Notes under the pieces: model-generated
The model's input: only the letters and a program-made list of their open reading frames with translations
Told to the model about the DNA's origin: nothing
Databases searched by the model: none
Position numbers and translations under genes: made by a program
NCBI GenBank assembly: GCA_050298595.1
Contig: JBNKUM010000094.1
Span: 160,001-224,000, forward strand
Length of the DNA stretch: 64,000 nucleotides
Direction: 5' to 3'
From: Gammaproteobacteria bacterium
Lineage (GTDB): Bacteria > Pseudomonadota > Gammaproteobacteria > GCA-001735895
In this document: piece after piece, positions 55,872 through 64,000 of the stretch
How positions within the stretch are numbered: the stretch's first letter is position 1
Layout: the number at the start of each line of letters is the position of its first letter

Positions 55872-57392
55872 ATGAATAGACCACTACACATCCCTTCAGT
55901 CTCTTTCTTAATGTTGGCGCTCGGCGTCAGCATCTTAGCCATTGATCCCATTCACTGGTTGGTTAATTCCTGGTTTGAACCCAGTTATGATTCCGATGGG
56001 CTTTGGGTCTTTATGTTGTTCTCCCTGCTGCTGTTGTGGAGCCTGACCTCGCCTCGGAAAGAGGTGCCAGGCCGACATCAGCGCCTGGCTTTGCTGCTGT
56101 TGGCGGCAACCGCCATGCTCCGCCTGGCGGGGCAGGTGTTGGCGGTCAATATTCTCGGCGCCTTAGCCCTGGTGGTGGATGTCTATGCTCTGGGGTTGAT
56201 ACTGGGCTTGCAACAACGACAGCGTCCGCTGTCACCTCTGTGGATGGCGCTGTTGTTCGCTTGTGCCCTACCACTGGAGCGGGTATTGCAGCGTACTCTG
56301 GGGTATGGCCTGCAACAATTATCTACCTGGTCTTCCTGCTCATTGCTGACAGGCCTGGATGCCGGCATTACTTGCCAGGGCACGCGAATACAACTACCAA
56401 CTGAGACCTTGTTGATCGATTTGCCCTGCTCGGGGGCTTCGGCTCTGGTATTACTGACCGTGCTGCTGAGCGCTTTGATGGCTGTGGCGCGTCCTGGTCG
56501 TTGGCAAGGCGTGGCAGCGACCTGGGTTATGTTGTTGGCTGCCTGGATGAGCAATAGCCTGCGTATCCTGATCTTGACGCTGGGTGTGCTGCATCCTGTG
56601 TCAAATGTGGATGTGATGCAGCAGCCCTGGCATGAGTTGATCGGATTGTTTTCCCTGCTGCCTGCCTTCGCTTTACTGGTCTACTATTTTCTGTTGGTGA
56701 CTCGGCCAGGCCGGTGCCAGGTGTGCGACAAGGCCTGGAGACCAGCAGCTCAAAGCCAACCGGTAAAGACCGCTTTGACTTCTGTTTCACCTGCCCTGGG
56801 TGCTGTGGCCTTCTTCTTGTTGGTCCTGGTGATTGTTACCCGCACTCCGCATCCGGTGGACAGCAGCACAGTACTGGATACACCCTATGCCCCGCGTTTT
56901 CTGGCGGGAGAGTATGGCCAGGTCGTGCCCTTACTCGATAAAGAGCGTCACTATTTTGAACGCTTCGGCGGCGCCGCCATCAAGGTGCAATATGCTGAGC
57001 ATGGCTTGCTGATTACCCAGACCCAATCCCCGTTGCGCCATCTGCATGCTCCAGATGAATGCTTGCGCGGACTGGGGTTTTCTGTGGACTACGTCGGCAG
57101 CCATGCCGCCGTGTTGCCTACTGCCGTCTACCGGGCGCAATCCCCTGATGGTCGCCTCTGGCGTGTTTCCGTCAGCTTTGTATCCAGTAGCGGCAAGACC
57201 GCGACACATGTGGCAGAGGCTGTTTGGTATTGGTTGCGCACACCAGAGACCTGGATGGCGATGCAGCGCATTGTCCCCTGGGATAGCCCAACTCCCGAGG
57301 ATCAGGATTGGGACCAATACTTATTCGCCGCGCTAGATATCCCTTCTGTTGCGATTAATCCGCAGCTTAACCCTCAACCCTTAAGGAATTGA
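55872..57392 (+). CDS. Exosortase (exosortase T-like)
   Basis: Multi-TM protein; catalytic triad in PCSG, NSLRI and PWHELIG; adjacent VIT/vWA target. Confidence 0.82.
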   Translation: MNRPLHIPSVSFLMLALGVSILAIDPIHWLVNSWFEPSYDSDGLWVFMLFSLLLLWSLTSPRKEVPGRHQRLALLLLAATAMLRLAGQVLAVNILGALALVVDVYALGLILGLQQRQRPLSPLWMALLFACALPLERVLQRTLGYGLQQLSTWSSCSLLTGLDAGITCQGTRIQLPTETLLIDLPCSGASALVLLTVLLSALMAVARPGRWQGVAATWVMLLAAWMSNSLRILILTLGVLHPVSNVDVMQQPWHELIGLFSLLPAFALLVYYFLLVTRPGRCQVCDKAWRPAAQSQPVKTALTSVSPALGAVAFFLLVLVIVTRTPHPVDSSTVLDTPYAPRFLAGEYGQVVPLLDKERHYFERFGGAAIKVQYAEHGLLITQTQSPLRHLHAPDECLRGLGFSVDYVGSHAAVLPTAVYRAQSPDGRLWRVSVSFVSSSGKTATHVAEAVWYWLRTPETWMAMQRIVPWDSPTPEDQDWDQYLFAALDIPSVAINPQLNPQPLRN

Positions 57393-57396
57393 TGAC

Positions 57397-59439
57397 ATGA
57401 AAAAAATGCTAATTTTACTGATGATTCTGTGGTGCTTGCCCGTCTGGGCTGAAGATCAGGTTCCCGGCGGTTTTATTGAAGCTGAACATCAGGGAAAGAA
57501 GATCCTGTTTCCATTATTGAAATCCCATTACCAGGTCGATATCCAGGGCGACCTGGCCCAGGTGACCCTGGAGCAGGACTTCCAGAATCCGACCGGTATT
57601 CCACTCAATGCCAGCTACCTTTTTCCCTTGAATAAGGACGCCGCCGTGCATGCCATGCACATGCAGGTAGCGGACGAACTGGTCGAAGCCAGGATTCGCC
57701 GCCGCGAAGAGGCCAGGAAAGCATTTGCCGAAGCTAAGGTGCAGGGTAAATCTGCCAGTTTACTTGAACAGCATCGCCCCAACATGTTTACCCAACAACT
57801 GGCCAATCTCATGCCGGATATTCCCATCCATATTACTTTGCAATATGTACAGCATATTAACCGGGTGGACAGCCACTATGAGCTAGTCTTGCCACTCATT
57901 GTGGGGCCCCGCTACCAACCGGAACAAACACAACAAAAGACCATCAAGCGAGTCGGCATGTGGCAGTTGGAGGCATTACCAGCCTATCCCTCAGTGGCTG
58001 GGCTGAACCTGCCCAAAGAAATTGAACAAGAGCGGGTGAGCATCGAGATTACTTTAGACGGTGGAATGCCTATCTCGGCTGTTTCCAGCCCGACTCACGG
58101 CATAGAGATCAAATCAGTGGATGAACAGCAAAGGCGCATCAGTCTTAGCAACGGTCGCACCATCGATAACCGGGATTTTGAATTGCACTACCGTTTAGCT
58201 GGAGAACGGGTACAGGCTGGTTTGCTGACCCATGAAAATGAGCGTGGCCGCTTCTTTAGCCTGTTACTGGAACCGCCAGCTATACCCCAGAGCGAGGCCA
58301 TCACCCCGCGTGAGATGGTGTTTGTGCTAGACACCTCTGGCTCCATGTCCGGTGACCCGCTTAAGGCCAGCAAAGCTTTCATGCAGCAGGTGTTGCACCA
58401 CTTGCGGCCCAGTGACCATTTTCGCATCATCGACTTCAGCAACAGTCCCAGGGAATTCCATGCCAACCCGTTGCCAGCAACCGCTGAGAATCTGCGTCTC
58501 GGTCAGGCTCATATCCAGGGCTTTAAAGCCGGTGGCGGCACCGAGATCGATAGTGCTATCAAGCAGGCCCTATCAGTACCAGCGATGCAAAACCATCTAC
58601 GCATCGTAGTATTTCTGACCGACGGTTACATCGGTAATGAGCACAGCGTACTACAACGCATCCAGTATTTGCGCGGTAATGCCCGTATCTATGCCCTGGG
58701 TGTCGGTACCGCTGTTAACCGCTACCTGTTGGATGAAATGGTGCGGGCAGGTCAAGGCTTTGTGCGCTATATCGACCCTACCGAGGAAGTGGAAGGTGCC
58801 GCCCAGCGCTTTGCAGAGCGCTTGCGTACGCCGGTGCTGACCGATGTTAGTATCGACTGGGGCGATACCAGGGTCGAGCAGGTCACACCTGCGCAGCTGC
58901 CTGACCTCTTTACCGGCGATTCTCTGCGTCTGCTGGGCAAGATCAAGCAGGTGGGTCAGAAGCCCATCAAAATTCTCGGACGCATCAATGGGCAGCAGGC
59001 TACTTTGCCGCTCAAACTTCAGTTCGATGAGCAAGCAGCAAATCAGGGCCAGGCGATTCCCCTGATCTGGGCCAGAAGCCGGATTGCCGATCATATGCGA
59101 GAAATGACGTTGCCGAATGATCGCCGCTCTTCGGAACTGCCTGATAAGGCATTGAAAGAAAAGGTGACCCAATTGGGGTTGGATTATTCCCTGATGACGC
59201 GTTGGACCGCTTTCATCGCCGTGTCGCAGAAGATCTACAATGAACAGCCCGCTGCGTCTAAGGATGTTTCGGTTCCCCTGCCCATGGTCAAGGGTGTCAG
59301 TCAAAAGGCCTATCCTAAACAAACTCAGCAGTTTCATGGCAGCTCAGCGCCGGAGGCTGAAGAGGGCCTGCTGTTGCTGATGTTGGTCTTGGCTGGGTTG
59401 TACTGGTGGCAGCGTCACCAGTATGGAGAAATGCTTTGA
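57397..59439 (+). CDS. VIT and vWA domain protein with a PEP-CTERM-like sorting signal
   Basis: Signal peptide, YLFPL, DTSGSM MIDAS, LTDG, C-terminal APEAEEGLLLLMLVLAGLYWWQR. Confidence 0.9.
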   Translation: MKKMLILLMILWCLPVWAEDQVPGGFIEAEHQGKKILFPLLKSHYQVDIQGDLAQVTLEQDFQNPTGIPLNASYLFPLNKDAAVHAMHMQVADELVEARIRRREEARKAFAEAKVQGKSASLLEQHRPNMFTQQLANLMPDIPIHITLQYVQHINRVDSHYELVLPLIVGPRYQPEQTQQKTIKRVGMWQLEALPAYPSVAGLNLPKEIEQERVSIEITLDGGMPISAVSSPTHGIEIKSVDEQQRRISLSNGRTIDNRDFELHYRLAGERVQAGLLTHENERGRFFSLLLEPPAIPQSEAITPREMVFVLDTSGSMSGDPLKASKAFMQQVLHHLRPSDHFRIIDFSNSPREFHANPLPATAENLRLGQAHIQGFKAGGGTEIDSAIKQALSVPAMQNHLRIVVFLTDGYIGNEHSVLQRIQYLRGNARIYALGVGTAVNRYLLDEMVRAGQGFVRYIDPTEEVEGAAQRFAERLRTPVLTDVSIDWGDTRVEQVTPAQLPDLFTGDSLRLLGKIKQVGQKPIKILGRINGQQATLPLKLQFDEQAANQGQAIPLIWARSRIADHMREMTLPNDRRSSELPDKALKEKVTQLGLDYSLMTRWTAFIAVSQKIYNEQPAASKDVSVPLPMVKGVSQKAYPKQTQQFHGSSAPEAEEGLLLLMLVLAGLYWWQRHQYGEML

Positions 59440-59567: not shown

Positions 59568-60173
59568 TCAGGTTGAACCAGCGGCTATGACCCTGGATAT
59601 CTGCATCATTTTATCCTTTTCTTTTTGATCCAGATTTGAGTAGATCATCAAAATCTCCTGAAGATCATCTGGAAAGTAGGCGCATAGGCCATCTAGCTCC
59701 ACATGCTGTTCATCCATCCAGTTGCGGGATTTTTTTAGCTGCTTTTCGATTTTACGACATAATTTATCCTGAAGTTTCAGGAAGGGATTATCCAGGTGTT
59801 GCTTGAATTCTGAAGGTTTCAGCCCGGTAGTTTTTCTAAGTGCCGTGACTTCTGTTTTATTTAAAGATTTTACCAGTTGGCTCAGGTTCTGATGACGAAT
59901 AGCCTGAAGATCGCGCTCACCAGACCCTATGCTACCTAAACCAAACTGAATCCAGCAGGGATTAATTTTAGTGACTTCGGCTATCTTCAATATGTCCTGA
60001 GAGGCGGGCATAGAGATGCCCTGCTCATAGTTACCCAATCGGCTGACACTCCATTCAGGAGTCGCCTGTATAAATGCTGCGCGCGTCTTAAACCCCGCCA
60101 TTTGCCGGGCCTGTTTAATTCGTGCACCGACCTGTTTTCTAAAATCATCAGTAGTAGTATTTTTTTTGGTCAT
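59568..60173 (-). CDS. XRE family HTH transcriptional regulator
   Basis: GARIKQAR...RLGNYEQG...INPCWIQFG and a second HTH-like region RHQNL...CRKIEK...WMDEQH. Confidence 0.85.
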   Translation of the reverse strand: MTKKNTTTDDFRKQVGARIKQARQMAGFKTRAAFIQATPEWSVSRLGNYEQGISMPASQDILKIAEVTKINPCWIQFGLGSIGSGERDLQAIRHQNLSQLVKSLNKTEVTALRKTTGLKPSEFKQHLDNPFLKLQDKLCRKIEKQLKKSRNWMDEQHVELDGLCAYFPDDLQEILMIYSNLDQKEKDKMMQISRVIAAGST

Positions 60174-60181
60174 AATAAATA

Positions 60182-60238
60182 ACAAGAATCTTGTAATTAG
60201 TGGTTGACAGCTTGTAATGCTTCATTATACTACGCAGC
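60182..60238 (+). promoter_or_regulatory. sigma70 promoter of the tRNA/ncRNA array with candidate operators
   Basis: TTGACA 60204-60209, 16 bp spacer, TATACT 60226-60231; CTTGTAAT at 60190 and 60211; palindrome ACAAGAATCTTGT. Confidence 0.75.
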
Positions 60239-60267
60239 AATTCTTAATTCTGATTAATTTTAAAGGT

Positions 60268-60384
60268 ATGCATCATTTATTCATTTCAACGCAGAAGCAA
60301 CTCAGTATCAGCCCCCAGGCTGTGCCTATGTGTGAGTGGATATGTATATCTTTTGATAATGAGTATAAGACAGTAGATTTTTGA
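60268..60384 (+). CDS. Putative leader peptide 1 (38 aa)
   Basis: MHHLFISTQKQLSISPQAVPMCEWICISFDNEYKTVDF; stops just before attenuator 1; weak RBS. Confidence 0.45.
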   Translation: MHHLFISTQKQLSISPQAVPMCEWICISFDNEYKTVDF

Positions 60385-60393
60385 CTTTCTATT

Positions 60394-60470
60394 TTGGAAG
60401 GTCAATGGCACCTTCCGAGCAAAAATTAAAAACCCGGTTTGTGCTAAACAAGTCCGGGTTTTTTTATGCC
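60394..60470 (+). terminator. Attenuator 1 (alternative hairpins plus terminator)
   Basis: GGAAGGT/ACCTTCC stem; terminator AAAACCCGG...CCGGGTTTTTTT containing GTGC complementary to the upstream GCAC. Confidence 0.7.
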
Positions 60471-60545
60471 GGGAGAAAGGGAAACCAGAGATACTACATA
60501 ATTGACAAGGGGTGCTCTAGTTATTCACAACTAGAGGAATATGAA

Positions 60546-60659
60546 ATGTCTGTAAAAAACAAGACTATAGATAGAGAGCTCTATGGTTGTGTTAAAAGAA
60601 AATATATAGGGCCATGGTCAACATATTGGTTAGTGTTAACAGACCCTGGGTCAAGCTAG
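60546..60659 (+). CDS. Small ORF (37 aa) between the attenuators
   Basis: GAGGA RBS; MSVKNKTIDRELYGCVKRKYIGPWSTYWLVLTDPGSS. Confidence 0.35.
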   Translation: MSVKNKTIDRELYGCVKRKYIGPWSTYWLVLTDPGSS

Positions 60660-60829
60660 ATATGACACGGCCAGGAAGAAGGGAAAATAAATGTTGCTGT
60701 ATTGCAGTAACGAAGGGGAAGGATCCAGATGGTCTGGTATTCCCTTTGGGTAATCACCGACCCCATGAATATTACTGGTGAGTGACTGGCGTAATAAGCT
60801 ATTGAATAAATTTAGGAGCAAAGTTTTTA

Positions 60830-61006
60830 GTGAACATGTTATCGATAAATAGAGCTGTCTGGCCGGTGATTTATGTATCGCCAACAGCCCAGTTGCGCCC
60901 TGAGTTTATGGGCAAGCAGCTCTGTATATCCGCTCTGTATATAAGCAATGCGCCCAGGAACCTGGAACAGAATCATTTTGATTCAAAGGGTATTGGTAAA
61001 ACGTAA
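60830..61006 (+). CDS. Putative leader peptide 2
   Basis: AGGAG RBS, GTG or ATG start, MLSINRAVWPVIY...KGIGKT; stops before attenuator 2. Confidence 0.5.
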   Translation: MNMLSINRAVWPVIYVSPTAQLRPEFMGKQLCISALYISNAPRNLEQNHFDSKGIGKT

Positions 61007-61022
61007 TTCTCCATGAAAGTCC

Positions 61023-61110
61023 TTCGGAGGGTTGCAGTAATAACAAGCACCTCCGAGAGTTTAAAAAACCCCGGTTGTGCTTGAGAAGGCACCCGGGGTT
61101 TTTTTATGCC
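61023..61110 (+). terminator. Attenuator 2
   Basis: TCGGAGG/CCTCCGA stem; CAAGCAC/GTGCTTG antiterminator pairing; terminator AAAAACCCCGG...CCGGGGTTTTTTT. Confidence 0.75.
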
Positions 61111-61113
61111 CCC

Positions 61114-61148
61114 ACACCGGCGTTCCCGGTGTTAATGATCTTTGACAA
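61114..61148 (+). promoter_or_regulatory. boxB-boxA-like antitermination signal
   Basis: Hairpin ACACCGG-CGTTC-CCGGTGT followed by TGATCTTTGACAA (rrn boxA is TGCTCTTTAACAA). Confidence 0.6.
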
Positions 61149-61269
61149 TTTGGAATCACGCAATGCCACCGGGAAACCGGTGGCCGGGCGAAACACTGAA
61201 GTAATCAGTCAGTTGTTTTGTCGCGGACATTTGTCTGCGATATGTCGAACCCATCGACCGCCCACAACT

Positions 61270-61344
61270 GCAGATATAGCTCAATGGGTAGAGCGACGGC
61301 TTTCCTGGCCGAGGACCCCAGTTCGATTCCGGGTATCTGCTCCA
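61270..61344 (+). tRNA. tRNA-Gly(TCC), atypical
   Basis: Cloverleaf, loop TTTCCTG, U73, CCA; T-stem mismatch. Confidence 0.8.
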
Positions 61345-61424
61345 GATTCGCCTGCTTGCAGGCAAATGCCTGGCATTCTTGTCCCGAGATGCCGGTGCAG
61401 CGACACATCGGGTTCCCATGATGG

Positions 61425-62283
61425 ATAAGCCGGACATCCAGTGTAGTCGGCAGTGTCATCAGACCGCGTGAGGTCTTTACGATAATTGATGGCGACATCG
61501 AAAAAGGGGGAATGCCTGCATACCCTCGCCGGGGCAACTCGGTCGATTTACGCAAGCCCAGTCCTCTACGTCTTCGGGTCGCTCGGAGATACTGATAAAG
61601 GGATGCATGGTAATTAAGGATGCCGGGCGGCTAAAACCGTGGTATTCGAATGTTTTCGTGACTGTTAACGCCATGGGTCAACATCTCGTTTCAGGAGGGA
61701 TGAAGGGTGCACTTTTAGTCCGAGCCGTCAGGTTAGGGCGTTAGTGAAGTTTGAAGGGTGAGGGCAGTGGCCCAGATCCTGAAAAACGGTCAAGTAGCGG
61801 GATACGTGAAAGACATGGGGTGTGTGGCATTTTTGTCCTCAAAAGGGACTGGAACCACCGGAGTACGCACATCCTGGCAGGTTGTTGAAATAGCTCAACT
61901 GGTAGAGCAATTACCTCTTAAGTAATGGGTTTCAGGTTCAATTCCTGATTTCAAGGCAAACAGAAAATGGAAAGACGTACTCCAGCGTTAAGTGAAAGTG
62001 ACCTAAGTCTCGGCAGCTTGCTGAACCGAGAAGGGTTTGAGGCCCCAAGCCAATAACCCGGGTACCGAATCGCATCAATGGGCCGGACAGCTCAGAGAGT
62101 AGATGAAGTGCCGAGTAGCTTAGCGGTATGTAGGTATTGCCACCTACTCAAACAAGGCGGTTACGAAGGTTTACCATGATGCCAAGAAAGGGGGCATGGT
62201 GGATAAGCTGGGAAACAGCGGGTGGAACCGACTGATAATCCAGTGAAAGGATCTTCATAGAGGCTGTAATCTCAGGCCTTATT
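61425..62283 (+). ncRNA. Probable GOLLD-type large structured RNA with an embedded tRNA
   Basis: About 860 nt without a credible sense ORF, inside a tRNA array; 5' GCCGGACATCCAGTGTAGTCGGC and 3' CGAGTAG...TCAAA...GTGGATAAG...ATAATCC...GCTGTAATCTCAGGC resemble GOLLD ends from memory; boundaries approximate. Confidence 0.62.
61884..61956 (+). tRNA. tRNA-Lys(CTT)-like domain inside the large RNA
   Basis: Perfect D, anticodon (CTCTTAA) and T arms; 1:72 G-G mismatch; no CCA. Confidence 0.75.
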
Positions 62284-62285
62284 CT

Positions 62286-62361
62286 TCCCTGATGGCGTAA
62301 ATGGTGAACGTAGCTGACTGTTAATCAGAAGTTTCGGGTTCGAATCCTGATCGGGGAGCCA
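62286..62361 (+). tRNA. tRNA-Asn(GTT)
   Basis: Loop CTGTTAA, G73, CCA. Confidence 0.88.
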
Positions 62362-62367
62362 GATATT

Positions 62368-62451
62368 GGTTGTACTGAGCATTGGTGGGCTCACCTGGCT
62401 GTAACCCAGACTCCTCTGGACGTGATGGTTCGACTCCATCTGCAACCACCA
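62368..62451 (+). tRNA. tRNA-Tyr(GTA)
   Basis: Loop CTGTAAC, long variable arm, A73, CCA. Confidence 0.88.
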
Positions 62452-62565
62452 GACAAAAAAATCATGAGAGCAAACTGCAGACACTCTCGATATCGATTGA
62501 TAAAAGCGGCGTTGGCCGTGAATTATCCCCTGGCTAATTCCTGAAACGGCGAGGGTTAGATTTAT

Positions 62566-62642
62566 GCGTCCGTAGTATAACTGGATATTACACCGGACTT
62601 TTAATCCGGCTAATGCGAGTTCAACTCTTGCCGGACGTACCA
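62566..62642 (+). tRNA. tRNA-Lys(TTT)
   Basis: Loop CTTTTAA, CCA. Confidence 0.88.
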
Positions 62643-62648
62643 TTTTAT

Positions 62649-62723
62649 TGCTCTGTAGCTCAATGGTAGAGCCCCCGGCTGATAACCGGAAGGTAGTGGG
62701 GTCAGTACCCACCAGAGCAACCA
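62649..62723 (+). tRNA. tRNA-Ile(GAT), atypical T-loop
   Basis: Loop CTGATAA, T-loop GTCAGTA, CCA. Confidence 0.85.
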
Positions 62724-62798
62724 GTTTGTTATGTTCCCAGGCTCTGGACAAACGATATTCCTGCGAGCCAGGCTGCCCGACAATCGGGCTCAAATTAC

Positions 62799-62873
62799 AC
62801 TCCCGTGGATTAATGGTGAGATCGACAGACTTTCAATCTGTAGGTGAGGGTTCAATTCCCTTCGGGAGTACCA
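62799..62873 (+). tRNA. tRNA-Glu(TTC)
   Basis: Loop CTTTCAA, CCA. Confidence 0.88.
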
Positions 62874-62878
62874 GATAT

Positions 62879-62952
62879 GGGGTCATAGTTAAGTTTGGGC
62901 GAGTGCCTGTTTTACAAGTTGATTATTGCCAGTTCGATTCTGGCTGGCTCTA
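62879..62952 (+). pseudogene. Decayed tRNA with Ala-type body (G3:U70) and TAC anticodon
   Basis: Acceptor GGGGTCA/TGGCTCT, intact T arm, broken anticodon stem, CTG instead of CCA. Confidence 0.65.
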
Positions 62953-63091
62953 CTGAATGTGCCTACCTTGTTAGCTACAGGAAGGTCATCACACCACAGT
63001 CAGCACAGAGGGGGGCTGAATAGCAGCGAGGCTGCAAAACGGTGCGGTAAAAGTCCGAAGTTTCGTAACACAACAGTAACGGAGGTATCCA

Positions 63092-63262
63092 ATGAATCAC
63101 TATCGTAAATTTGAACGTGCAGTTCAGGATATGAATATCCCGAAAAACCGCAAGACTGCCAACCCAGCTAATGCGAGTTGGTTCTTAAGGTCAGGAGTAG
63201 CCTACAACCGTGATCACGACAAGATCATGACGGCGATATTCCATGCGCGCAATATTTCTTAA
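63092..63262 (+). CDS. Small protein (56 aa) inside the tRNA array
   Basis: GGAGG RBS; MNHYRKFERAVQDMNIPKNRKTANPANASWFLRSGVAYNRDHDKIMTAIFHARNIS. Confidence 0.7.
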   Translation: MNHYRKFERAVQDMNIPKNRKTANPANASWFLRSGVAYNRDHDKIMTAIFHARNIS

Positions 63263-63266
63263 CAAT

Positions 63267-63344
63267 GGTGGGTATAGCTCAGTGGGTAAGAGCGCCGGGT
63301 TGTGACCTCGGAGGTCATCGGTTCAAGTCCGATTATTCACCCCA
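63267..63344 (+). tRNA. tRNA-His(GTG)
   Basis: G-1, loop TTGTGAC, C73, CCA. Confidence 0.9.
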
Positions 63345-63410
63345 AACAAGGACTGCTTTAACTTCCCCCAGGGATTGGTGGATACAGACCCGGAGTTAAA
63401 GCACCAATTT

Positions 63411-63487
63411 ATCCTGATGGCCAAATTGAATAAGGCAGCGGTTTATGAAACTGGAGAATGCAGGTTTGACTCCTGCTCGGGATACCA
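63411..63487 (+). pseudogene. Atypical tRNA with ATG anticodon, probably decayed tRNA-Arg(ACG)
   Basis: Loop TTATGAA, Arg-like D-loop, T-loop TTTGACT, CCA. Confidence 0.65.
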
Positions 63488-63496
63488 AATCATTCT

Positions 63497-63573
63497 GCCG
63501 GGGTGATGGAATTGGCATACATGCTTGTCTTAGAAACAAGATTTTGCGGGTTCAAATCCCGCCCCCGGTACCA
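63497..63573 (+). tRNA. tRNA-Leu(TAG) with short variable loop
   Basis: Loop CTTAGAA, 5-nt variable loop ATTTT, A73, CCA. Confidence 0.88.
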
Positions 63574-63579
63574 GTTCAA

Positions 63580-63656
63580 TAGCGATTAACTCAGCTGGTT
63601 AGAGTGCCAACCTTACCAGTTGGATGTCGTGTGTTCGAATCACACATCGCTAACCA
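63580..63656 (+). tRNA. tRNA-Val(TAC)
   Basis: All stems paired, loop CTTACCA (C37 atypical), CCA. Confidence 0.82.
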
Positions 63657-63657
63657 C

Positions 63658-63734
63658 GGCAAAGTGGCTGAAATGAAAATGGCGCAAACCTCATAAGATT
63701 GAAAATGCCGATTTAATCCCGGCCTTTGCCTCCA
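63658..63734 (+). pseudogene. Degenerate tRNA-Met(CAT)
   Basis: Paired acceptor, loop CTCATAA, degraded D- and T-loops, CCA. Confidence 0.65.
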
Positions 63735-63740
63735 ATATTT

Positions 63741-63815
63741 AGCGAGATAGACCTAATGTTAGAGCACCGGGTTCATTTCCCCGAAGACCCGGTTTAGATT
63801 CAAAATTTCGCTCCC
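63741..63815 (+). pseudogene. Decayed initiator-type tRNA-Met(CAT)
   Basis: AGCGAGA/TTTCGCT acceptor, GGG/CCC anticodon stem, T arm destroyed. Confidence 0.55.
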
Positions 63816-63821
63816 GATTAT

Positions 63822-63899
63822 CTGGGTGTAGCTCAGTCTGGTCAGAGTTCTTGCCTTGGAAGCAAGATGCCGTTGGTTCGAATCCAACCACCCAGACCA
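63822..63899 (+). tRNA. tRNA-Pro(TGG)
   Basis: C1-G72, loop CTTGGAA, A73, CCA. Confidence 0.92.
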
Positions 63900-63904
63900 A
63901 ATAT

Positions 63905-63979
63905 GCGGATGTAGCTCAACGGTAGAGCATTGCCCTGTCAAGGCAGAGGTCGTGGGGTCAGTACCCATCATTCGCGCCA
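63905..63979 (+). tRNA. tRNA-Asp(GTC), atypical T-loop
   Basis: Loop CTGTCAA, T-loop GTCAGTA, G73, CCA. Confidence 0.88.
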
Positions 63980-64000
63980 GATTCTACGAAAGGAAAAGTC

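Follow-up and report, generated by a model that had tools for sequence, protein, structure and literature searches.

The locus considered here raises the question of what a bacterial chromosome gains from a second, mostly redundant set of tRNA genes placed behind several layers of control, and of the conditions under which such a set would be expressed. It lies at the end (positions 59568 to 64000) of a 64,000-nucleotide stretch, hereafter the window, taken from contig JBNKUM010000094.1 of the Gammaproteobacteria bacterium assembly GCA_050298595.1 (positions 160,001 to 224,000 of the forward strand). In the explanation that we favour, to which as a whole we assign a probability of roughly 0.6, the last part of the window is one end of an island of about 7.4 kb, gained by horizontal transfer, which extends from an XRE-family repressor gene through an aldo/keto reductase gene and in which a GOLLD RNA and a tRNA array stand under a layered control that would answer damaged or blocked translation by supplying replacement tRNAs. 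The island belongs to the class of long tRNA arrays, known as L-arrays or tRNA array units, that bear a GOLLD RNA and an HNH endonuclease gene.

To our knowledge, GOLLD is among the largest bacterial non-coding RNAs and has no known function, a question that has been open since 2009, and we know of no regulator of a long tRNA array so far other than the cyanobacterial TrcR. The present locus puts GOLLD outside any phage and behind a readable control region that is shared with RtcB operons, and this control cassette may explain the quiet state of long tRNA arrays in Proteobacteria. On a more far-reaching and less probable reading, in which the cassette is a portable sensor of failing translation, GOLLD would have its place in a host-encoded response to RNA damage or translation stress, and not in phage biology alone, and could serve, for example, as a cage storing or shielding the co-transcribed tRNAs. 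If the island is simply constitutive, it is one more GOLLD-bearing tRNA array.

The control cassette and its cargo in homologous loci

The purpose of the locus is approached here through its relatives. At least 136 homologs of the regulator, of about 200 aa and 43–55% identity, were found, and a profile scan of species-representative genomes gave 69 regulator loci, mostly from sulfur-oxidising Gammaproteobacteria according to the record titles. Counts on the leader side refer to the 66 loci with at least 1 kb of sequence there, and the other side of the regulator gene, present in 58 loci, served as a control. A divergent tRNA lies within 2 kb of the regulator in 50 of the 66 loci, against 1 of 58 with any tRNA on the control side, and 30 of the 66 have a boxA-like motif in sense orientation within the leader zone, against 0.074 expected per zone (about 5 loci, with the same loci as background). 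The original prediction had proposed looking for the same architecture next to XRE homologs, and its control part recurs there. The anatomy of the control cassette is real and conserved: operator repeats over a near-consensus promoter, a leader open reading frame (ORF) of 45–60 codons, a five-segment switch, a terminator and, often, boxA.

In 26 loci the leader shows the same layout, in which the ORF is followed by alternative segments and an intrinsic terminator. The ORF ends in Met-Thr-stop in 15 of these and in (Met/Val)-x-stop in 24, and in homologous leaders its stop codon stands about 130 nt ahead of boxA. The leaders share three short segments and a GC-rich terminator, after which many have a spacer of 33–36 nt with a hairpin, and then boxA; the spacer hairpin is predicted in most relatives (mean z of –1.4, with 11 of 22 below –1.5). 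The boxA consensus of the family matches the boxA of Escherichia coli rrnB (PMC2176067) more closely than the window copy does. Moreover, CAAG/CTTG boxes recur at the promoters of homologous loci, the counterpart promoter of the relatives reads TTGCAA-N16-TATACT, and the arrangement of two leader units in series, present in the window, recurs in locus L013, the regulator of which is 51% identical to that of the window.

The RNA ligase RtcB, encoded in 38 of the 66 loci (Pfam 8e-129 in examples), ranks as the commonest leader-side cargo together with an SPFH/Band-7 protein (39 loci), and a 315-aa protein without a family is found in 25; arrays of 8–33 tRNAs are a minority, with 10 loci, and 61 of the 66 have at least one of RtcB, SPFH, the 315-aa protein, an array or a tRNA. 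RtcB and a tRNA array occur in one string in L011 and L071, and in L035 rtcB begins right after the terminator. Going by record titles, Thiorhodococcus, Thiocystis violacea and Imhoffiella purpurea are among the cultured carriers of the RtcB version. HNH genes follow the arrays in L070 and L045, and tRNA-Gly(UCC) is the first gene, as in the window, in L019, L023, L025, L053 and L070. GOLLD is an optional part, being found among the ten other array loci only in L019, where it has an embedded tRNA and follows the leading tRNA-Gly(UCC). rtcB, for which the original prediction had suggested inspecting the sequence beyond the window, thus belongs to the cargo of the same regulator/leader cassette in relatives and does not adjoin the array here; the genome of the window has two rtcB genes elsewhere, neither of them with a tRNA or a boxA-bearing leader adjoining.

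Since the same cassette drives RtcB operons in relatives, a response to damaged or blocked translation is the most likely purpose of the island. A further step can be put forward tentatively, namely that the cassette serves specifically to sense the failure of translation and can be moved as a unit, being made of a repressor, an attenuator responsive to ribosome lag and Nus-dependent processivity, which in sulfur-oxidising and related Gammaproteobacteria would switch on a toolbox; this toolbox would usually consist of RtcB, SPFH and a tRNA-like gene, sometimes of whole tRNA sets and, in a few lineages, of GOLLD.

Several features of these operons were observed in passing. The 315-aa protein (L042:4130-5077, with homologs in 25 of the 66 loci) belongs to no Pfam family and adjoins RtcB and SPFH, its place being taken in L011 and L071 by a PcfJ-like protein. 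In the RtcB-type loci L029, L036 and L042, ARAGORN reports tRNA-like genes with the anticodon UUA, which would read the stop codon UAA, as the first or second gene behind the cassette. In L011, L071, L012, L066 and L050, which are RtcB-type operons without boxA, a conserved stretch, made of a hairpin and then a well-conserved run, lies about 150 nt upstream of the first “tRNA-Met.” This stretch may be part of a larger tRNA-like RNA, and may resemble the Y RNA-like genes that adjoin rtcB elsewhere among bacteria.

The predicted leader switch and its surroundings in the window

The regulator gene (59568–60173, minus strand) encodes a predicted XRE-family repressor of 201 aa with an N-terminal helix-turn-helix (HTH) domain and a conserved, all-helical C-terminal domain. 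PHROG repressor families match it at 8e-8, and PF01381/PF13560 are carried by many of its homologs in precomputed annotation. In an AlphaFold (AF2) model (pLDDT 84), the N-terminal domain superposes, by Foldseek, on ImmR, BldD, P22 c2 and DdrO, with a TM score of 0.8 of the target for the first three, and a profile search of the PDB with the regulator matched the HTH domain alone. For the C-terminal domain, Protein Atlas points to unnamed clusters at 0.93, a lead and no more, and also lists clusters of 111–123-aa proteins that resemble this domain. At G000:C119:11462-11794 (minus strand) there is an open frame with one in-frame TAA that is 38% identical to residues 86–194 of the regulator, i.e., the C-terminal domain, and this stand-alone frame may be a free-standing partner or a pseudogene.

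Divergently from this gene, the control elements follow each other on the plus strand in the order operator boxes, promoter, leader unit 1, a 37-codon ORF, leader unit 2, hairpin and boxA. The candidate operator of the regulator extends over the repeats at 60182–60217: a 13-bp palindrome of the CAAGnnnCTTG type, read from the sequence at 60182–60194, and further CTTG(T/C)AA boxes up to 60217, which overlap the –35 box and the spacer of a sigma-70-type promoter (TTGACA-16-TATACT, 60204–60231, 11 of 12 matches in a scan). Predicted leader ORF 1, of 38 codons (60268–60384), has a stop codon that abuts segment 1 of attenuator unit 1 (60382–60465 by folding), in which segments 1–3 and the antiterminator are followed by a terminator hairpin at 60428–60458 and a U7 tract. 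Between the two units lies a 37-codon ORF with a GAGGAA Shine-Dalgarno sequence (60546–60659), uncertain as a gene, for which a PHROG search gave no match. Predicted leader ORF 2, of 56 codons (60836–61006), ends in Gly-Lys-Thr-stop; three near-identical relatives have the frame open as well, with Gly-Met-Thr-stop as the end in one of them. Attenuator unit 2 (61004–61105 by folding), aligned with 21 relatives, comprises segments 1–3 and a terminator hairpin at 61063–61098 with a U7 tract, which RNAfold predicts with 15 pairs and –22.9 kcal/mol. Neither terminator was called by a simple terminator scan, which allows loops of no more than 8 nt and hence passes over the longer loops present here. 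Both units of the window share the layout of a leader attenuator, in which the end of the ORF overlaps or abuts the first alternative segment and an intrinsic terminator follows. Further downstream are a boxB-like hairpin with a 7-bp stem and a 5-nt loop (61114–61132, z = –2.1) and an rrn-type boxA (61136–61153), identical at 15 of 17 positions to that of E. coli rrnB (PMC2176067). Within the 5.49-Mb genome this motif is found a single time, and the host assembly has no other exact boxA of the rrn type. The divergent XRE gene, the promoter, the two leader/terminator units, the boxB-like hairpin and boxA had all been proposed from the letters of the window, and each stands where it had been placed. 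Rfam matches below threshold to His_leader (28.5 bits versus 49), ncr1015 (41.5 versus 60) and YrlA (up to 24 versus 69) were set aside as terminator or tRNA look-alikes, as was a match below threshold to Plastid-ycf2 on the antisense of the tRNAs.

In the leaders, segment 1, which starts at or just past the stop codon of the ORF, has segment 2 as a possible partner; segment 2 can alternatively pair with segment 3, and segment 3 alternatively with the 5′ arm and the loop of the terminator. In order to follow these options, 22 leaders were folded as nascent RNA, cut ahead of the 3′ arm of the terminator, and the ribosome was represented by masking 15 nt from the stop codon. The free nascent RNA adopts 1:2 together with 3:4 in 19 of the 22 leaders; once masked, 2:3 forms in 20 and the terminator arm is freed in 14. 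The mean sequestration of this arm is 0.58 in the free and 0.33 in the masked RNA. Unit 1 of the window switches in silico in the same way, with 1:2 plus 3:4 when free and 2:3 when 15 nt are masked. In the alignment, 83.2% of the cells of the OFF structure are paired, versus 37–60% when the structure is slid, with nine pairs and 23 cells changed on both sides, the 23 cells being reached by none of 500 shuffles; the ON structure has 81.3% of its cells paired, versus 37–53% when slid, with 11 cells changed on both sides. The leader would thus have the logic of a ribosome-sensing attenuator, as the original prediction had supposed when it took the leader for a sensor of ribosome stalling, and folding and covariation lend moderate support to a read-through that would occur when ribosomes lag.

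A mechanism in three layers can be proposed from these elements. In the first, the XRE-family repressor would bind the CAAG/CTTG boxes over the strong promoter. In the second, consisting of one or two attenuators and drawn from the folds and the covariation, a ribosome that reaches the leader stop codon in step with the polymerase would cover segment 1, so that 2:3 pairs and the terminator 4:5 forms, and ribosomes that lag, stall or are absent would leave 1:2 and 3:4 to form, with the result that RNA polymerase reads through. In the third, to judge from the motif, boxB and boxA on transcripts that have got past the terminator would recruit the Nus antitermination factors, and the polymerase would be carried through about 3.5 kb of untranslated, highly structured RNA. 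The output would be the GOLLD RNA, some 20 foreign and mostly redundant tRNAs, a small basic protein and the HNH protein.

A number of results weigh against this scheme. The full criteria for a switch hold in just 11 of the 22 leaders, and shuffling segment 1 lowers the sequestration of the terminator arm only modestly (0.46 versus 0.58), a difference greater than 0.2 being seen in 6 of the 22. Unit 2 of the window does not switch in silico, its arm being 0.90 sequestered both free and masked. The covariation score of the ON structure was reached by 86 of 500 shuffles, its “further pair types” lie below those of the shuffles, and both the OFF and the ON structures were derived from the same sequences that were later counted. 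Many of the predicted leader ORFs have a weak Shine-Dalgarno sequence, and boxA is unseen in 36 of the 66 leaders; the boxA of the window was scored against that of E. coli rrnB and not against the host's own rrn, the assembly having no 16S signature. As for the regulator, its matches to Pfam HTH_31 and HTH_3 (21–22 bits) are under the curated cut-offs, and Foldseek gave no match for its C-terminal domain in the PDB at E ≤ 0.001.

It is rather unlikely that the leader works in another way, i.e., as an attenuator that senses an amino acid or tRNA charging, by arrest of the nascent peptide, or through a protein or RNA that binds the hairpins, so that induction would be specific and not a general measure of ribosome lag; in the arrest variant, the conserved Gly-Met-Thr-stop end would respond to a defect in a release factor or to a particular ligand. 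Conservation at the peptide level across subfamilies is seen for the C-terminal Met-Thr-stop and for a Cys in the middle of the peptide, and is not needed by the RNA-pairing model, and both the insensitivity of unit 2 to masking and the presence of two different units in series in the window fit such a mode. However, no codon is repeated in a run in the leaders, the alternative pairings are conserved with some compensatory changes, and pairing at the nucleotide level could explain the conservation of the codons, since these overlap segment 1 or mimic the hairpin loop and its 3′ arm.

The island: GOLLD RNA, tRNAs and origin

Downstream of boxA, the order is tRNA-Gly, GOLLD with a tRNA-Lys inside, the tRNA array with a small ORF, and the HNH gene. 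The large structured RNA of about 860 nt that had been proposed as an RNA scaffold is present, and it is the known GOLLD RNA, with a length of about 930 nt (61345–62280, plus strand). Rfam RF02032 (GOLLD) matches its conserved 3′ domain at 61817–62278 with 166.7 bits, versus a cut-off of 150 (E 5e-45), and over the full model (positions 1–416 of 416). The approximately 470 nt between tRNA-Gly and this domain (about 61345–61816) correspond to the variable 5′ half of GOLLD, bringing the total above the 800 nt expected for the family. A tRNA-Lys(CUU) is embedded in the linker (61884–61957). The whole RNA is 98.4% identical in a sister genome, and parts of its 5′ half can be aligned with sequence in L013 and L019. 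In L013, in the orientation of the locus and about 880–1270 from the regulator start, a stretch is 72–79% identical to parts of this 5′ half, with a tRNA-Asn at once 3′ of it and no Rfam GOLLD 3′ domain, and it may be a relative of GOLLD that consists of the 5′ half only.

Part of the stretch is held in 21 public sequencing runs, six of them RNA libraries. Contigs were examined in four RNA libraries from four studies; with an identity of 97–99%, they were taken as evidence of presence only, and their depths were left out of any ranking of parts. Word shares of 0.10–0.14 in the remaining runs were likewise kept out of any conclusion on habitat or expression. Over the GOLLD region they extend from 61372 to 62253, from 61416 to 62451 (the 3′ end of tRNA-Tyr), from 61613 to 62363 (the 3′ end of tRNA-Asn) and from 61489 to 62279, the last of these being followed by adapter sequence right after 62279–62281, where the Rfam match ends. 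Contigs of 884 and 1057 nt cover both halves of GOLLD, and a low-depth contig (61091–61352) goes from the tail of the terminator through boxA and tRNA-Gly. From these data, it would seem that GOLLD accumulates in natural settings as an RNA of about 900 nt, from which the downstream tRNAs have in some cases not been separated. The XRE gene and most of the leader are without contigs in the four libraries, which does not count as evidence of silence. In fact, GOLLD contigs in four studies argue against strict silence, and since they imply expression in some natural settings, the notion of a normally silent array is unproven; at this locus, induction by stress would follow from the inferred logic of the control region.

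The array proper begins with tRNA-Gly(UCC) (61270–61344), the first gene of the transcription unit, and continues after GOLLD with 13 further tRNA or tRNA-like genes in the window (62286–64000), all identified on the plus strand by ARAGORN and Rfam. With the embedded tRNA-Lys, the window holds 15 such genes, 13 by ARAGORN and two by Rfam only. Beyond the window, five more tRNAs extend the array to the window-equivalent position 64658. The whole array thus amounts to 20 genes for 16 amino acids, 18 from ARAGORN and two weak Rfam-only genes of 33 and 40 bits. The original prediction had counted 16 in the window; the array is real, and the sixteenth, at 63732–63821, was rejected, nothing tRNA-like being found there even at E ≤ 10 in Rfam. 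Likewise, the tRNA-like gene at 62879–62952 was rejected as a suppressor, the Rfam alignment reading UAC in a poor anticodon stem. L-arrays are defined by at least 20 tRNA genes at no less than 2 per kb (PMC4758250), and here the density of 20 genes in 3.4 kb, or 5.9 per kb, lies well above that limit, the count of 20 being reached only with the two weak Rfam-only genes. The island tRNAs are 52–77% identical to the host isoacceptors.

Two single genes of the array deserve a separate mention. At 63411–63487, ARAGORN predicts a tRNA-His with the anticodon AUG, unusual for bacteria, which adjoins a normal tRNA-His(GUG), scores 47.6 bits in Rfam and is 52% identical to the tRNA-His of the host. 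The tRNA-Ile(GAU) at 62649–62723 is intact in the window; in the sister genome (L007:9131-9278) its T-arm is split by an insert of about 145 nt with inverted-repeat ends, which may represent a small mobile element or an insertion resembling an intron.

Inside the array, a small ORF that had been noticed earlier is confirmed and conserved (63092–63262, plus strand). Preceded by a GGAGG Shine-Dalgarno sequence, it encodes a basic protein of 56 aa that is 100% identical in the sister genome and has homologs in nine other cassette loci, in three of which it stands directly behind the leader. It has no Pfam or PHROG family, and a word-indexed search limited to proteins of 30–98 residues found three, one labelled “hypothetical protein” and the others unnamed. 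Directly after the last tRNA there is a gene for an HNH endonuclease (Pfam HNH_5, 3.9e-15), which ends at about 65290; an HNH gene was among those that the original prediction had named for the sequence beyond the window. On the 3′ side of it are the aldo/keto reductase gene, then pilin-like genes and an alpha-2-macroglobulin gene according to Pfam annotation. Directly upstream of the island, at 55872–59439, an exosortase (EpsH family) gene is followed by one for a VIT/VWA-domain protein with a hydrophobic C-terminal tail, a pair that makes up an ordinary sorting enzyme and its target.

The extent of the island is given by the sister genome (G010), which shares a 7.4-kb block from the stop codon of the regulator gene to that of the reductase gene, with 94.6–95.6% identity. 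The shared block sits between different genes in the two genomes: the left flank of the window is missing from the sister genome, the gene of the right flank is on another contig there, and the chromosomal gene that adjoins the island of the window is 83% identical in the sister genome and located elsewhere. An empty-site comparison with the sister genome yielded neither a cleanly delimited site of insertion nor direct repeats. GOLLD is present in one of 13 other genomes of the same genus and in none of 87 further relatives searched. By sequence comparison, the island is foreign and spread by horizontal transfer, as follows from the divergence of its tRNAs from those of the host, from the identity of about 95% in the sister genome against 83% for the neighbouring gene, and from the patchy distribution of GOLLD. 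Two short repeats were also observed. One, of about 50–180 nt (L003:10346-10526, window-equivalent 69346-69526), accounts for dozens of the 46 matches that the sister genome gave. The second (L003:6448-6568) lies between the HNH and reductase genes, with another copy close to the island of the sister genome. In appearance, both repeats are of the MITE or REP kind.

We consider it quite unlikely that the island is a decayed phage remnant or the cargo of a mobile element, in which the survivors would be GOLLD, a set of phage tRNAs, a repressor of the CI kind and a homing HNH gene, expressed constitutively or in dependence on a helper phage and with no role in the translation stress of the host. 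Phages and prophages are the typical carriers of islands of GOLLD and tRNAs, and the level of GOLLD goes up when phages lyse their host (bioRxiv 10.1101/2024.12.08.627333); PHROG repressor families are matched by the regulator, the HNH protein matches phage PHROG families as well, and the tRNAs are foreign, individual ones being 76–80% identical to phage tRNAs. On the other hand, as had been noted for the window, there are no phage genes: annotation of the two genomes revealed no phage structural, integrase or transposase gene in about 30 kb downstream or in either flank. In a DNA search of phage records the matches were to single tRNAs, with no record covering more than 5% of the region; of 23 candidates for the regulator family in the viral contigs of IMG/VR none was confirmed, and tblastn with this family against 72,556 records of plasmids and 50,697 of phages gave no match. 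Furthermore, the same cassette mostly drives chromosomal RtcB operons. A prophage as such was rejected in view of the ordinary chromosomal flanks and of phage DNA matches limited to single tRNAs, and the array is not a prophage tRNA cluster.

Ordinary extra tRNA capacity, i.e., gene dosage or codon supply for acquired genes, expressed in normal growth at a level set by the terminators, is improbable: the RNA contigs over GOLLD and the adjacent tRNAs in four environmental studies speak for it, as does the fact that 17 of 18 island tRNAs look intact and encode CCA (the exception being the tRNA-Lys within GOLLD), but 15 of the 18 anticodons are already present in the host, a repressor, two terminators and an antiterminator are heavy control for a housekeeping set, and the L-array of Anabaena is silent until translation is impaired (PMC8421152).

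Comparison with known systems

The original prediction knew of no such combination in Gammaproteobacteria. The association of GOLLD, an HNH gene, an XRE gene and a tRNA array is not new as such, because arrays with GOLLD, HNH and XRE are known in mycobacteria and L-arrays in all classes of Proteobacteria. What was not found described in the literature searched, which took in few subscription journals and left supplementary tables outside, is the presence of leader attenuators and boxA and the link with RtcB.

Mycobacterial tRNA array units are reportedly also the subject of another study, by Morgado and colleagues in 2020. Among the mycobacterial arrays, those of the commonest group have an XRE regulator together with HNH in about 87% of cases, and a structured RNA of about 430 nt is found in about 81% of all the arrays (Morgado and Vicente 2018, PMC5966550); moreover, a cluster of 32 tRNAs with GOLLD and HNH has been reported (Behra et al. 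2019, PMC6582537). These units share with the present island a dense array of foreign tRNAs, a GOLLD RNA with an embedded tRNA, an HNH gene, an XRE-type gene and horizontal spread. They belong to another phylum, however, and the available text of these papers makes no mention of leader attenuators, of boxA or of a link with RtcB. The mycobacterial XRE genes and the regulator described here are likened by type; tblastn of the plasmid and phage records with the family of the latter gave no match.

Long tRNA arrays spread by transfer are known from seven phyla, among them every class of the Proteobacteria, and an HNH gene is their conserved neighbour (PMC8421152). In Anabaena sp. PCC 7120, the array, rtcB and the HNH gene are kept silent through repeats over the –10 box and are induced together when inhibitors impair translation (Santamaria-Gomez et al. 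2021, PMC8421152). The trn operon of Anabaena and our island have in common a long, transferred array, a linked HNH gene and repeats that overlap a strong sigma-70 promoter, which suggests repression, together with a co-regulation of rtcB and a proposed use under translational stress. The Anabaena operon is repressed by TrcR, which belongs to the ribbon-helix-helix proteins (Wang et al. 2023, PMC10272220) and has its gene at a distant place in the genome, whereas here the XRE-type gene adjoins the array. In addition, the available text on the Anabaena operon reports no leader-peptide attenuator, boxA or GOLLD, the latter word occurring 0 times in PMC8421152.

The leader PA5471.1 of Pseudomonas aeruginosa is much shorter than the leader described here. 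It senses stalled ribosomes and controls the RtcB-like ArmZ, the expression of armZ also changing in a mutant of suhB, which encodes a component of the boxA/Nus complex (reviewed in PMC12057347). In both cases a leader ORF and terminators are involved and read-through is tied, here by prediction, to the stalling of ribosomes, in P. aeruginosa ahead of a gammaproteobacterial gene of the RtcB family. The available text of that review describes no adjoining XRE gene, tRNA or boxA in the PA5471.1/armZ system.

As for antitermination in rrn operons, which depends on boxB-boxA-boxC and on NusA/B/E/G, SuhB and S4 (PMC10250234, PMC6614797, PMC4807359), the order of boxB followed by boxA is the same as in the window, and in both cases boxA stands ahead of a long, untranslated, structured RNA. 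Here, the site lies 3′ of a putatively conditional terminator and 5′ of tRNAs and GOLLD rather than of rRNA.

GOLLD RNAs occur near or inside tRNA islands, both in prophages and outside them, and sometimes have a tRNA inside (PMC5737381; bioRxiv 10.1101/2024.12.08.627333; PMC12990946), and cryo-EM has revealed that they form multimeric cages (bioRxiv 10.1101/2024.12.08.627333; reviewed in PMC12990946). The member described here agrees with the family in its score over threshold for the full model, in the tRNA of the linker, in the neighbouring tRNAs, in a length of more than 800 nt and in a variable 5′ half. It differs in lying on a gammaproteobacterial chromosome without a prophage and in having an attenuator/boxA leader in front.

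Finally, the rtcBA operon under RtcR offers a case in which damage to the translation machinery induces a ligase for RNA repair (Hughes et al. 2020, PMC7790460). The genome of the window also has a separate rtcB, the neighbours of which, judged without annotation, look like the classical rtcBA layout. RtcR is a sigma-54 activator with a CARF domain, whereas the cassette considered here would bring its RtcB operons, tRNA sets and GOLLD under the control of a repressor and an attenuator.

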